Source: Mycoplasma mycoides subsp. capri | GTDB lineage: Bacteria; Bacillota_I; Bacilli_A; Mycoplasmatales; Mycoplasmataceae | DNA: 32,000 nucleotides | Direction of reading: 5' to 3' | NCBI RefSeq assembly: GCF_018389705.1 | Contig: NZ_CP065581.1 | Location: 930,001 to 962,000, forward strand | Shown here: positions 4,742 to 10,672 of the stretch, piece by piece | How positions within the stretch are numbered: the first letter of the stretch is position 1 | Layout of the letters: each line of letters opens with the position of its first letter | The notes under the pieces: model-generated | Told to the model about the DNA's origin: nothing | Database searches by the model: none | The model's input: only the letters and a program-made list of their open reading frames with translations | Made by a program: the position numbers and the translations under genes

Positions 4742-7700
4742 CTATTTAACTCCATTAAATTGATCATAAACATAAAGTGTATTTTCATAGTGTTTAAATC
4801 CATTTGCATCAACTTTAACTGGGTTTTTACTTTTTTCCATTCTAATTGGAGCTTGTGAGAATGTTTTTCCATTTTCAGCAATTGATTGAAAATCACCTAA
4901 ATCAGTTTTAATAATATCTTTAGTTCCTTTTTTATCACTTGAAAAATAAACACTATATTTTTGTCCAGGTGTTAATAAGGCATTTTGATATTTAGACATA
5001 ATTGCATAATCACTAACTCATGAAACAAACCCAGTTCCTTTATGATGACCATTAGTATCTTTATAGTCATATTTTTCATGGGCTAAAGTATGACGAATCT
5101 TATCTTTTTGTTCTTGAGTTGTAGCAGCTTCATATTTAGCTTCATTTTCAATATTTTGAGTTTTGTAATAAAACATATTACTACTAAATTGCTTATTAAT
5201 TTTTACTGTTTTAACTTCTCCAGTTTCTTGGTTTTTAAATGCTAAATAATTTGCTTTATTTGCAACATCACTTGATAAATATCCAAACATAGCAACAGCA
5301 TCTTTTGAAGCATCTCTTCAAATACCACTAATGTTTCGCTTTCCTACTCCTTGAGATTGAATGTAATATTGTCAATAAGCATTAACTCTTGAAGTAACTT
5401 TTTTGTTCTCTAAATCTTTAATTCTAATAGTGTCATCTATTATTGGTTTACCATCATCATCATAAAGTTTGAAATCTAAAAAGTCACGATATCATCTATC
5501 TTTAAATCAACCGTTATTAATTGATTGGAATTCTCCAAAATAGCTATTATTATAGTTTGAATCATCACTTAAATTAGATTTTTGAGATAGTTTAGAATTA
5601 CGATATTTTAAATTTAAAGCTTCAGCTTTATTTTTAGCCTCATTATCAACTAATTTTTCATAATCTAAAATAGTATTTACAATACCATTTCTTCCATCAC
5701 TATCATTAATTTTAATTGCACGTTTTTTTCATTTAGCAGTTGTAGTTCCATCAACAACATACTCTAAACCAGTTGTAGCTTCACTAATGTTTGATAAAAA
5801 GCTTGGCATATTTCCAAAATCATGATTACTTGGAGAATAAGTAATTTGTAAGTTGTCACGGTTAATTACTTCAGCAAAACTATAAGTATAATCTGAAAAT
5901 AATTCATTAAATTTACGTTCAGTTTTATTATGGAAATATTCTAGTACATCTTGAGATGGAGAAGTGTGGAACTGAGCAGTTGCTAATGATGAAAATATAC
6001 TTAATAGATCGAACTTTTTATTAGCGATATGAATTTTGGTTTGATCAGTATATAGTTGTATTTTATTATCAAAAACTAGTGCATCAACTAGATTTAATTG
6101 CTTAATTTCTACCTTTAATTCTTTAGCAAATTTATCATATGCATTTAGCATATCTTCAGTACTAATCTCTCATTTGTTCTTGTCTGGATCTTTAATTTTG
6201 AATTCTGTTTTTTTAAAGTCTCCATATCCATGAACTGAATCAAATATTCACCCTAATTCCTTGTTATTTTTAATATCCTCAATAGAAAGCGCACTATTAT
6301 ACATTGCAAAATATGAAGAGCTAAATCTGCGCATTATTTCATTTGCTCATATTTGGTCAGTTTTATCTTTGTTAGCTTTTTCGTAAAACTTTCTGAATGC
6401 TTCTTTTTGATTTGCATTCATTGAAGTAAATGAATCTAATTTATCTAAAACATATGTTTTAAAATTATTTTTAAATTTGTTAATATCAATTTTACCCTTA
6501 ACATAATTTTTATCTCAATTAACAGTTTCATCAGATGCACTATATTTAGCTTTTGTTAAATCTACATTTACAAAATCTAGTCATTTTTGAATATCGCTAA
6601 ATTCTAATCTGTTCTTTTCAAAATTATTAAATGAACCAAATAAACCATTTATAATATTGTGATCAAGAGTTTTTAAAGCATCACCATAATTTAGTTTTAA
6701 CTTAACAACATCTAAAATAGTATTATCTTTACTATTATCAAGTGAAACTACTTGTTCAGACTTATTTATCATATTTCATATACCATCTTTATTAAATTTG
6801 CTTGCAATAAAAGTTGGGGTATATGCTGACATTCATTTTAATATTTTTTTTGCTTCGAATATTTTTTCATATTCTTTTGGTAATCTACTTAAAAAATACA
6901 AATCAGTATAAGCATCTTGCAATTTAACATTAGGCATATACATTTTATTTTTATCAATTCATAATACTTGGGCTGAACCACCATTAGTTGGATTATCTTG
7001 AGAAGAGCCTGCTGTAAACATCGTTGCTAATAATGATGCAAAATTAATTTGACCATTACCATTTACTGGTTTAGAATTTTTTGGATTTGCATATATTAAA
7101 CTAGATTGTTGATCTTTGTATTTATGACTAATTTTATTTTCTGTTCCATCTAAGTTATAATATTTAATTTTGTTTCCGTCTTTATTAGTATCTTTATAAG
7201 AGCCCTTATCAACATCTCTATTTGAAACATAATTACCATAAATCTTTTTAAACATTTCATTTGCTTCATATGGTAATCTTGCACCAAAAATATTTTTAAG
7301 TGCAGGATAATTTAAATCAATTTTAGAATCTAAACTAAGACGTGAGTCTGTTTTATTTCATCCATTTATTGTATATTTATCAACTACTAAAGATTTGATT
7401 GTTTTTTCAACAGTTTTTATTTTTTCATTAACAAATTCAATGGTTTGGGCCGCATTTACACTTTCATTTTTTAAATCTACACCAAGAGGAACATTAATTA
7501 TAGGAGATCCGTCTCTGTTGTAAATTAAAACTTCAGTAATCTTTGTATAATTTCCTTCTGAATCTTTTTCACCTTTTACAACAATTGGTTCAACTGTTTC
7601 ATTATTTCCATTATTATTAATTTGAAATTGTACAGGATTTCCCTTTCCATCTTTAAGTATTCCATTTAACATTTTTAATGAAGCAGGTCTAAACTTTAAT

Positions 7701-10672
7701 TCGCCGTTTTCATCTTTATACATGTATTTGACAACTTCATTATTCTTAGTAGAACTATTAACAGTTGGATTTAATGTACCTGAATAAAAATCGATTGCAT
7801 TAGCAATTCATAAATCAAAAGGGTTAAGTCATTTTTTGTCATTTTCACTTGTTAAGCCATTGTCTTTTTGACGCTCTTTAACAGCTTCTAATAATCCTGC
7901 AAAATCCTGTAAAAATCTTCTCTTTTTATTACTAAAAGCAGTTCTAATATTTGGATCTTCAATATTAACTCCTCAAATATCAGAATCATCTTCTAATCCT
8001 TTTTTATTAGATTTAGTATCAAAACTTATAGAACCATTTTTATCTTTTTTAGCAAAATTAAATGTTGCATATTCTCCATAATCTTTAATTGCACCAAACT
8101 GATCTAATAAACGTTTAGTTTCTAGTTCAATATGAGTACGAGCTTTTAAAAATAAATCAACAGCTTCTCTACTATAATAGTTATTAATGTTTGGTGTTGC
8201 TCCAGGAGTTAAAGCACTAATAAAAATTGGATCACTTCCTTTATTTCCTAGATCATGAGCACCATTTAAAGTAATATGATGTCCATATTCATGAGCTCCA
8301 ACAAATTTTAAAAAGTCAGTTGAAATACCTTTAAAGTTTTTATCTGACATTTTTAAAATCGCTCATAATCCAATACGATCATCTTTTGTAAATCCTAAAT
8401 ATTTACCATTTTCTAGCTTATATTGCATTACACCATTTTCATCAATAACTTTTTTAATATGTGGTCCTTCTAATCATTGTGCTGCGTATGGGACTTTTTC
8501 TAATAATTCATCAATTAGATCTTCATAAGCATCAGTATAAACATCAAAAGTTTTTTCAATTTCTCCTGTTATTGGATTTCTTAAGTCACTTTCTTCTTTT
8601 AATACACTAGGAGAAACCATTTTTTTATAACCTAAAACACTAAAAAAATCATTAGCTGCTCTAATTACACCGTGATTTATATCTGAATTTATAGATAAAT
8701 TAACAACTTTGTTTCCAAATTGTTTTTGTTGATCTGCTTTTTTATCTTTAAGTACTTCTTTTATTGTGATTAATAAATTTTTGTTCTCTTTTTTAACATT
8801 GGTGATATCTGCTTTAAAAACAAGTTTATTAATCTCATTTTGATCAGCATTAGGCTTTAATAATTTTCTTTTAGTAAGAATATCAACTAATTCGATTTTT
8901 GTTTTTGCAACAATTAAATCATTTTCATCTAATAATTGTTTATAACTTATCTTCTCACTAGAATTGTTAGAGTTGAAAGCGTGTTTTGAATAAACAAAAA
9001 AGTCTGTTATACCTTTATTTATATTTTCTCTATCAGAAATAAATTCATCGATATTATAAAAATCTCTTCAATTTAACTTAAGTTTATTACGATTTTCAAC
9101 TAGTGATTCTATTGAAATTAATTCAGGTAATGTATATGCAAAATCAACATTATAGTAATTTTGTTCTTTAAATTGTCTGTTTTTTGTTGATTGGTTAAGT
9201 GTTTGAAGTATTTGTGTTTCTAAATCAAACAAACTTTTTGAAACTTCTTTAAGAATTTTTGATTGTTCCAAACCATTTTTTAAATCGTTGTTATTGTTTA
9301 ACTTGCTTGATTTATCACTAATAGATTTAACTTCTTTTTCAAGTTCTTCAAATTGAGCATTTTTGTCTATTTTTGATTTTTTTAAGTCTTTAATTTGCGT
9401 TTCAATATTTTTTAATTTACTTTTAAATTCTTCAACTGCTTTTGAAAATTGCACATAATCTTTTAACGCAACAAAAGTTGTTTTTTTCTCATTATTAGTT
9501 TGTTCTGTTAAAACATCACCAAAAGCATTGTGAATATAATATTTTGTTTTATCATTAAATGTTATAAGTAATTTTTTATCTACAACTTTATTATTACCAT
9601 TAGGTTTAACTTGATCTTGTTTTACTTCAGCACTTTCAATAGTTTTTTCTTCTAAAATAACATTTTTAGGATCTATATTTTTAAATAAATTATATTTATC
9701 ATTTTTCTTATACTCCGATAATTTTATTTCTAATTTATTCTTAGCTTCATTTAAATTACTAGCTGGAATAACAAATAAATAATCAGATTTATCTTCTAGT
9801 CTTTTGCCTTCTAATTCAGAAAATGAGTTAGAAAAATTGTTATATCAATCTTTTTGTTTATAAGCAAATACTTTTTGACCTTTTAAAAAACTAACATTAG
9901 TAATTCCTCTAAAATATGATTTATCGATTGTTTGTTGGGATAAATTAGCAAGTGAGTTGTAGTTACTAATGTTAGTTAAAAAACTTTCTAGATCTTTTTT
10001 TGTTAAAACTTGTTGATTTAGTTTATAAGTTAATGATTCATGAGCATTACCTCTACCAGATAAACTAGAATAAATTGGTAAAGTTCCAAAAAAGGCATCT
10101 GGATAAAACTTAATAGTTGTTTCTTCTTTGTTTTTATTACTGTGAGCACCTAAAGTAATACTATTACCATTCATCTCAACACCTTTAACAATTGAAAATG
10201 ATTTTAAAGTAATAATTTCAGGTCCTCAAGAAACGTTTTTCATAAACCATTTAGTAAATTTGAAAAATTCTTGTGGACTAACTGCTTCTATGTATTGGTT
10301 ATAGAAATTAAATGAACCATATCTAATATTTAAATAAGGTAAGGCATGATATTTTTTATAGTACTGATCTAAATATTTATCAACACTTAATTCTTTTCCA
10401 TTGACTTTAACAACATCTTTTAATGGATCATAATCAACTTTAAATTTATTATTATGTATTTCTGAAAATTGAGTAACAGGTAAAGCATTTGGATCAATAA
10501 AAGCATTTTTAAATGATTCTTCATCACTAAAATTTTTACGACCTAATTTTTCAACAGATGTATTTGAATATTTATAAGCAGAACCTAGAATAGCAGTAGT
10601 TGCAGCAATAATTAAACTAGCAGATATAGCATATTTATGTCATACATATTTTTTAAAATTTATTTTAGGCAT
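4742..10672 (-). CDS. Giant membrane-anchored protein (1,976 aa) with PDxFFG motif, coiled-coil-like region and HExxH (HEYGHH) putative zinc-metalloprotease motif; function unknown
   Basis: Nine track ORFs between 4742 and 10174 all end on coordinates equal to 1 mod 3. I translated every gap (5000-5017, 5291-5728, 6152-6580, 6773-6958, 7256-7357, 7724-7972, 8351-9067, 9455-9844, 10175-10672) and found only TGA interruptions. ATG 10672 is preceded by an AAGGAG RBS. One hydrophobic helix (YAISASLIIAATTAILGSAY) maps to about 10574-10633. YPDAFFG is at 10085-10102 and FVGAHEYGHHITLNGAHD has HEYGH at 8279-8293. The stop is TAG at 4742-4744. Confidence 0.85.

Follow-up and report, generated by a model that had tools for sequence, protein, structure and literature searches.

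What is the role of a surface-type protein of 1,976 codons that carries a single HExxH motif and is encoded directly ahead of an oppA gene in Mycoplasma mycoides subsp. capri? The gene belongs to the PDxFFG family and lies on the minus strand of a 32,000-nucleotide (nt) stretch of DNA (contig NZ_CP065581.1, positions 930,001 to 962,000; hereafter the window), at window positions 4742-10672. We found that the gene opens a six-gene operon (PDxFFG-oppA-oppB-oppC-oppD-oppF) and that its product is a signal-anchored, Mollicutes-specific protein with three conserved modules, the central one of which bears an invariant HExxH on a helix together with a downstream Glu. An earlier sequence-only reading of this DNA had described the protein and the motif; the opp-operon context, which is the most informative fact on the gene, was absent from it. 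The function that we propose, a surface zinc endopeptidase that would feed peptides to the co-encoded OppA/OppBCDF importer, stands in our judgment at about an even chance of being right.

When read with translation table 4, the locus forms a single open frame of 1,976 codons whose only stop is the TAG at 4742-4744. The frame contains 24 internal table-11 stops, all of them TGA, and not one TAA or TAG, where about 150 would be expected at the composition of the window (24% G+C; probability of none ~3e-68). One of the TGA codons encodes W900 of a DIWG motif that is conserved across the family, and TGA is therefore read as Trp here. These counts bear out the earlier call of one intact code-4 gene, and a pseudogene or fragmented gene was ruled out by the unbroken frame and by the identity of the protein with RefSeq WP_017698076.1, "PDxFFG protein [Mycoplasma mycoides]". 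The remark that the protein is visible only under code 4 holds just for a table-11 track, the full protein being already in public annotation. The 90%-identity cluster of WP_017698076.1 includes MMSYN1_0841 of JCVI-syn1.0 and a "conserved hypothetical protein" of M. mycoides SC PG1, and the window gene is the orthologue of MMSYN1_0841; MAG_0250, MSC_1005 and MCAP_0116, tried as locus tags of the orthologue, each proved to be another gene. The family membership that the sequence-only reading had suggested was confirmed by the NCBIfam model NF012210 (345.5 bits, cut-off 150; E = 2e-103; match over positions 2-269 of the 269 in the profile). This model spans the N-terminal 270 residues only, and the HExxH module lies outside it. 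The family examples MMSYN1_0841, MBOVPG45_0038 and M. synoviae VY93_RS01090 share the PDAFFG motif, the architecture and the genomic context with the window protein. The family was also rightly described as functionally uncharacterised; the literature treats it so, and the two papers that name it give its function as unknown.

To place the protein among its relatives, we used a set of 88 homologous sequences and an additional set from an exhaustive HMMER (phmmer) search of 1.84 billion representatives, which returned just 108 clusters, all of them family-like. The named homologues and the 63 genome loci all come from Mycoplasma-type genera or Ureaplasma, and the PDxFFG family is small, closed and restricted to Mollicutes. 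HEYGHH was invariant in 87 of 87 homologues covering the site, down to 26% identity, in a set that is biased toward the motif, as its genome loci were fetched by the HEYGHH pattern itself. Among the representatives of the unbiased exhaustive search, H-E-x-x-H was kept in all 60 that cover the site, as HEYGH, HEFGH, HEYYH or HEMGH. The sequence-only reading had named loss of the motif among orthologues as grounds for dropping a metalloprotease; we found it invariant there and in distant paralogues as well. Residues 773-802, which include the motif, are among the top three 30-residue windows for conservation, and further invariant or near-invariant residues are T801, L802, A844, R845, E894, G901, R919, Q922, N958, D961, S964 and P969. 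On recheck, the positions that had been assigned to the hydrophobic segment, the PDAFFG motif and the K/E/Q-rich segment were all correct, while those given for the HExxH signature cover HEYGH only, the longer string FVGAHEYGHHITLNGAHD running from 8252 to 8305.

The zinc site had been described as having extra His residues nearby. These are non-essential: H799 is replaced by Met in distant members and H806 stands on a variable column (Q38/H35), which rules out either as the third ligand. The near-universal E894 is, from the alignment, the candidate third metal ligand. A metzincin was likewise rejected, since HExxHxxGxxH/D is absent: the motif reads HEYGHHxTLxx, the Gly position is an invariant Thr, and the position of the third metzincin His falls on a variable column in the PDxFFG family. 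The sole match of the module profile among PDB sequences was to matrix metalloproteinases (MMP-2 catalytic domains), whose active-site helix VAAHEFGHAMGLEH aligned with YVGAHEYGHHiTLe of the module at E = 0.14, which is not significant.

The second line of evidence is the linkage to opp. The 985-residue OppA-type gene begins 9 nt past the PDxFFG stop. Pfam and NCBIfam gave no direct match to its product; phmmer matched it to an SBP_bac_5 (OppA) protein of M. synoviae (E = 1e-195) and to one of Ureaplasma (E = 2e-130), and both of those genes directly follow a PDxFFG gene. In a census of one genome per species (63 loci, all Mollicutes, annotated under code 4; 61 evaluable), 60 of the 61 evaluable loci had a co-oriented OppA gene as the immediate downstream neighbour, with a median gap of 11 nt. 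Two layouts account for most loci: PDx-A-B-C-D-F (43 loci), as in M. bovis, M. neurolyticum and M. mycoides capri, and B-C-D-F-PDx-A (14 loci), as in M. synoviae and Ureaplasma. Genomes with two PDxFFG genes carry two complete sets. The PDxFFG-OppA pair has persisted through operon rearrangement, duplication and horizontal transfer, the last of which was reported between the mycoides cluster and M. agalactiae (PMC1868952). In Sirand-Pugnet et al. 2007 (PMC1868952) the gene was drawn next to the type-3 opp locus as a conserved hypothetical protein. The gene, the family name and opp adjacency in four species are already on record; the near-universal PDxFFG-OppA pairing appears to be undescribed, as does a metal-hydrolase motif that is invariant throughout a family of orphan fold. 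The PDxFFG protein has none of the Pfam domains of the canonical Opp subunits (SBP_bac_5, BPD_transp_1, ABC_tran), and it is a sixth, non-canonical component of the opp operon.

Several loci of the census and search sets deserve a separate description. The sole exception to the pairing, in Mycoplasma procyoni (L052, 8486-13795), is a second copy located 2.5 kb beyond OppF of a complete PDxFFG-oppABCDF set; it has no OppA of its own and is followed by small open reading frames (ORFs) and a DNA methyltransferase-like gene. In a 921-residue product of the exhaustive search, P0141, the first part is the C-terminal end of an OppD/F-type ATPase, which passes without a break into a PDxFFG protein. 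A missed stop or a code-4/11 artefact is the probable cause of the fusion, which is independent evidence that oppF lies directly 5' of the PDxFFG gene in that organism. In Ureaplasma urealyticum (L003, 19469-20491), a Peptidase_S8 (subtilisin-like) gene was found three genes 3' of the PDxFFG-OppA pair and may be a second protease tied to the same opp neighbourhood. In other species the majority of OppA partners have a lipobox Cys, while the window OppA (1775-4732) has a hydrophobic, Cys-free leader, MKKITKFSIIFGGISAAILATSIPLIVANTRSKK; Pfam SBP_bac_5 detects the lipobox-bearing partners and not the window OppA. In the mycoides cluster, a peptide anchor seems to have taken the place of the lipid anchor of OppA.

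Such close linkage also suits an alternative in which the PDxFFG protein is a non-catalytic accessory subunit of this Opp class, for instance a scaffold on which the unusually large OppA is positioned or loaded, or an arm that captures peptides, with the HExxH binding metal or peptide without hydrolysis. Near-absolute linkage to OppA across tiny gaps is what subunits of one machine would show, the PDxFFG and C-terminal modules are conserved as much as the HExxH block or more, and Foldseek detected no peptidase fold. However, all members retain the HExxH Glu, a residue that pseudo-enzymes usually lose; moreover, canonical Opp needs no sixth subunit, the other M. mycoides opp locus consisting of five genes (0165-0169, which the minimal cell retains). 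We consider this alternative unlikely.

The architecture of the protein was derived from pairwise alignments and a conservation profile against 24 distant members. Conservation is highest in the PDxFFG domain (residues ~100-220), the middle (~350-700) is barely conserved, the HExxH module (~680-975) is conserved again, and a variable stretch (~1150-1330) is followed by several conserved C-terminal blocks. Invariant in the PDxFFG domain are W149, G150, P151, H177, E183 and P191-D-x-F-F-G196, and the P, D, F, F and G of the signature hold in distant members too. As a separate observation, the part of this domain between residues 100 and 220 (~10013-10375) exceeds the HExxH block in conservation and has invariant polar residues of its own (H177, E183 and D192), and a second functional site could lie there; Foldseek returned no match for the fold of the domain. 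The window protein contains no Cys and exactly one HExxH, and residues 14-33 are its sole Kyte-Doolittle window above 1.6. A lipobox was found in 0 of 85 full-length relatives, and all family members have an N-terminal signal-anchor, in agreement with the sequence-only reading, which had described a signal-anchor without a lipobox; the protein is predicted to face the outside of the cell. The lipoprotein reading was rejected, since the protein has no Cys and none of the 85 relatives has a lipobox, despite the "lipoprotein" label in the BoviScan preprint.

The main variation in the family is in length. Many relatives have ~3,300 residues, the ~1,300 extra ones being located between residues ~443 and 575 of the window protein, a part that overlaps its K/E/Q-rich segment (residues 407-535, 9068-9454). 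The extra residues are present in M. bovis, M. agalactiae and one M. mycoides capri strain. In the genome of that strain (L008, 9001-18840), the exactly orthologous locus, with the same pth...cysS-secE-nusG neighbours as the window, encodes a 3,279-residue allele vs ~1,975 residues here. Because these two M. mycoides capri alleles differ at an orthologous locus, the ~1,300-residue spacer is polymorphic within one species. Homology between the extra region of L008 and its counterparts in M. bovis and M. agalactiae extends from end to end, at ~31% identity vs ~62% for the flanks, and the region has a high content of K, L, E, S and N; the same spacer was drawn as a "1,357-aa insertion" by Sirand-Pugnet et al. 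2007 (PMC1868952). A search of the long alleles gave no internal repeats and no Pfam domains, which rules out a repeat array or a known domain. By alignment, the window gene is a short allele that retains all three conserved modules, and the difference may reflect either a deletion or recombination with an M. bovis/agalactiae-type gene. Compact members of ~1,000-1,240 residues were also seen (L070 and L071 from Mycoplasma marinum; metagenomic P0088, P0089 and P0127), in which the PDxFFG, HExxH and C-terminal modules are present with almost no spacer and the partner OppA is smaller (~790 residues); they define the minimal architecture of the family.

A large, surface-anchored, immunogenic protein with a length-variable middle region could also be an adhesin or an antigenic surface protein in which the HExxH residues are structural only, and M. 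hominis OppA itself is reported as an adhesin. Conservation resides in the three modules with their invariant polar residues, however, and not in the variable, exposed spacer; absolute conservation of H, E and H at such divergence would be unusual for a purely structural helix. On balance, we regard an adhesin as highly improbable.

The predicted structures of two homologues (AlphaFold) place the motif in a suitable setting. P0088, a compact protein of 1,181 residues with all three modules, has a mean predicted local distance difference test score (pLDDT) of 60, with the N-terminal, HExxH and C-terminal modules modelled confidently, and P0156, a 375-residue fragment of the module, has a mean pLDDT of 74 with a core of 80-94. 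An HExxH outside a helix had been named as another reason to abandon a metalloprotease; in both models the motif is located within a long helix (377-397 in P0088 and 164-184 in P0156). This helix is preceded by a beta-hairpin and a short helix and followed by three further strands, after which the conserved Glu opens a short helix, an arrangement that in the models is compatible with a zincin layout. P0156 is recorded by NCBI as "Uncharacterised protein (plasmid)" of Mycoplasmopsis gallopavonis in a 22-kb record; either the gene, though opp-linked, has an unusual location, or the assembly is mislabelled.

Comparison with known peptidases gave partial likenesses. As in the thermolysin- and neprilysin-type gluzincins (MEROPS M4 and M13), the HExxH of the homologue models is on a helix behind beta-strands, and the family motif E-x-x-x-D-[IV]-[WF]-G echoes the third-ligand motif NEAISDIFG of thermolysin (E166-A-I-S-D170-I-F-G; verified in PDB sequences). 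The resemblance of the E894 motif is imperfect and, at the level of sequence, suggestive. The family differs from the gluzincins in that its Asp is not invariant and that no sequence-profile or Foldseek similarity to them was found.

Taken with the genomic context, these features suggest a mechanism in which the HExxH site would bind zinc through H794, H798 and probably E894, and E795 would act as the general base. Host proteins or long peptides would be cleaved at the mycoplasma surface, and the co-encoded OppA would capture the released oligopeptides for import through OppBCDF. Of this picture, the data establish the intact gene, its family, the invariant motif and its helical placing, the link to opp and the lack of a lipobox; zinc binding, hydrolysis, the substrates, the outward orientation and the passing of peptides to OppA are inferred. 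Peptide supply matters to these bacteria, since they cannot make most amino acids. Mollicutes rely on imported peptides, and the extracellular protein breakdown ahead of Opp import is poorly defined; an OppA-adjacent surface protein with an invariant metal-hydrolase motif is a concrete, testable candidate for that step.

There is precedent in lactic acid bacteria for both halves of this arrangement. The oppDFBCA-pepO operon of Lactococcus lactis is likewise a six-gene opp operon whose extra gene encodes an HExxH endopeptidase active in peptide nutrition, and it shows that a zinc endopeptidase gene can reside within an opp operon. PepO is a zinc endopeptidase of the M13 type; it differs from the PDxFFG protein in being cytoplasmic and acting after import, whereas the PDxFFG protein is signal-anchored, predicted to lie outside and to act before import, and the two are not homologous. 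The lactococcal cell-envelope proteinase PrtP, a large anchored extracellular protease, makes oligopeptides for import by Opp and so follows the proposed logic of extracellular cleavage and Opp import. In contrast to the PDxFFG protein, PrtP is a subtilisin-like serine protease encoded outside the opp operon, and it is unrelated in sequence.

Observations on orthologous loci bear on where such a function would matter. Transposon insertions in the M. agalactiae genes oppB and oppC (MAG0370 and MAG0360, which adjoin oppA, MAG0380) gave mutants that failed to spread systemically in sheep, and the oppC mutant also grew poorly with HeLa cells; this opp locus is of the same type as that of the window. 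At most of the time points sampled, infected cattle had antibodies that recognised the M. bovis orthologue MBOVPG45_0038, and the M. synoviae orthologue was the most upregulated gene upon contact with chicken cells. Immunogenicity in vivo and induction by host-cell contact would also fit a surface metalloprotease whose main targets are non-nutritional, such as host defence or matrix proteins or the bacterium's own surface proteins (including OppA maturation), with the linkage reflecting co-regulation only. The motif and topology evidence serves such a protease equally well, and the long, fast-evolving spacer of many alleles would keep its catalytic part off the membrane. However, the PDxFFG-OppA pair is kept across two layouts and in duplicated loci, which points to a function tied to OppA and not to one particular host target, and the hosts span reptiles, birds and mammals. 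We hold a protease of this kind to be quite improbable.

Several results weigh against the proposed nutritional endopeptidase. Pfam found no domain in the full protein and nothing consistent in 19 module sequences, and searches of PDB sequences gave nothing significant, whether the query was the protein alone or a profile of the module or of the full length. The exhaustive phmmer search returned members of the PDxFFG family only, and the module profile retrieved only PDxFFG-family fragments from 5.8 billion proteins. Three Foldseek searches (PDB and BFVD) had best E values of 0.05-0.4 with no peptidases among the matches, so that structural similarity to solved zincin folds was not found in them; the "classic" metalloprotease signature of the sequence-only reading thus found no confirmation in a Pfam, PDB-sequence or Foldseek match to any peptidase. 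The structure models are those of P0088 and P0156 and not of the window protein, in which the H794/H798/E894 metal site is a putative one. The family Glu lies 84-100 residues past HExxH, a longer spacing than in thermolysin, with extra strands and a helix between them, and in the unbiased set the +4 Asp of the E-x-x-x-D motif is a majority residue only. Since the HExxH block is surpassed in conservation by the PDxFFG domain, it may be in the latter that the main function resides. In the literature search, we found no paper proposing a peptidase role and no published zinc-dependent hydrolysis data for the family. Finally, in JCVI-syn1.0, where MMSYN1_0840 is nusG and MMSYN1_0841-0846 come next, deletion of 0840-0846 slowed growth and nusG alone restored it (doubling time of 64 min vs 62 min), and the six-gene locus is thus dispensable in rich SP-4 medium.

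On the other side, we counted in favour of the nutritional endopeptidase the invariant HExxH and its helix placement, the conserved Glu motif, the non-significant alignment with MMP-2, the linkage to OppA, the signal-anchor, the M. agalactiae oppB/oppC phenotype, the host antibody and contact data and the L. lactis precedent. A bolder form of the idea, in which these proteins would found a zinc-endopeptidase family without structural precedent (a new MEROPS family) and have an obligate OppA-type partner, together forming a surface "cleave-and-capture" machine, is less likely than not; a truly new fold would widen the known range of HExxH enzymes. Such a machine would supply the extracellular step that has long been lacking from the peptide nutrition of many pathogenic Mollicutes (M. 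bovis, M. agalactiae, M. synoviae, M. hyorhinis, Ureaplasma), and so would offer a surface-exposed drug or vaccine target. The family occurs in major veterinary and human pathogens. MMSYN1_0841 is available in the tractable JCVI-syn1.0 background, where the whole locus can be deleted, making clean genetics feasible.

Table 1. Features of the PDxFFG-opp locus, in window coordinates
Feature	Position	Strand	Basis
PDxFFG-family gene, 1,976 codons + TAG stop	4742..10672	-	identical to WP_017698076.1, orthologue of MMSYN1_0841
N-terminal signal-anchor or signal peptide (residues 14-33), following the basic stretch MPKINFKKYVWHK	10574..10633	-	no lipobox
PDxFFG domain, residues 7-271, NF012210	9860..10654	-	profile match and conservation
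PDAFFG signature motif, residues 191-196	10085..10102	-	read from translation
Variable-spacer remnant, residues ~443-575, K/E/Q-rich	8948..9346	-	allele comparison; PMC1868952
HExxH module, residues ~680-975	7748..8635	-	conserved to 26-30% identity
H794-E-Y-G-H798, putative zinc-binding/catalytic motif, predicted helix	8279..8293	-	invariance and homologue models
LKART, residues 842-846; A844 and R845 invariant, helix after active-site helix	8135..8149	-	alignment and model
E894-D-D-S-D-I-W-G901, family motif E-x-x-x-[D/E..]-[IV]-[WFY]-G	7970..7993	-	alignment
N958-A-I-D961-F-Y-S964-G-T-L-N-P969, invariant N..D..S..P block closing the module	7766..7801	-	alignment
Conserved C-terminal region, residues ~1340-1976, ending in a confidently predicted beta-rich domain	4745..6655	-	alignment and homologue model
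OppA-type substrate-binding protein, 985 aa, Cys-free membrane-anchoring leader	1775..4732	-	phmmer homology
OppB permease, 357 aa	702..1775	-	PF00528, E = 1.6e-33
OppC permease, N-terminal part, gene leaves the window	1..700	-	PF00528; orthologous locus L008
Shine-Dalgarno-like AAGGAG, 8 nt 5' of ATG (10672-10670)	10681..10686	-	read from sequence
Promoter-like TTTGCA-17-GATAAT, in 439-nt AT-rich intergenic region	10881..10909	-	weak evidence
AT-rich hairpin AAAACTAG-(7 nt)-CTAGTTTT, then T's	11064..11086	-	read from sequence

Upstream of the gene (Table 1), promoter-like sites in the intergenic region were not above chance (5 seen vs 6.7 expected). The AT-rich hairpin lies ~25 nt past the nusG stop and, from its sequence, is a possible terminator separating nusG from the PDxFFG operon; a terminator scan of the spacer did not call it, as it has too few G-C pairs.

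Two other features of the window were recorded. A predicted 437-residue lipoprotein with the leader ...TLTTISCSTT is encoded on the minus strand at 15454-16767; it has no NCBIfam match, and its position is conserved in M. mycoides capri L008, where the 437-residue product has no Pfam match. In addition, the sign of the GC skew flips at ~24,000-25,000, where the cumulative skew is also at its lowest; this coincides with the passage from minus-strand genes (to 24776) to plus-strand genes (from 25004), whose ORFs of 671 and 946 residues look like uvrB and uvrA; the skew change may merely reflect gene orientation.

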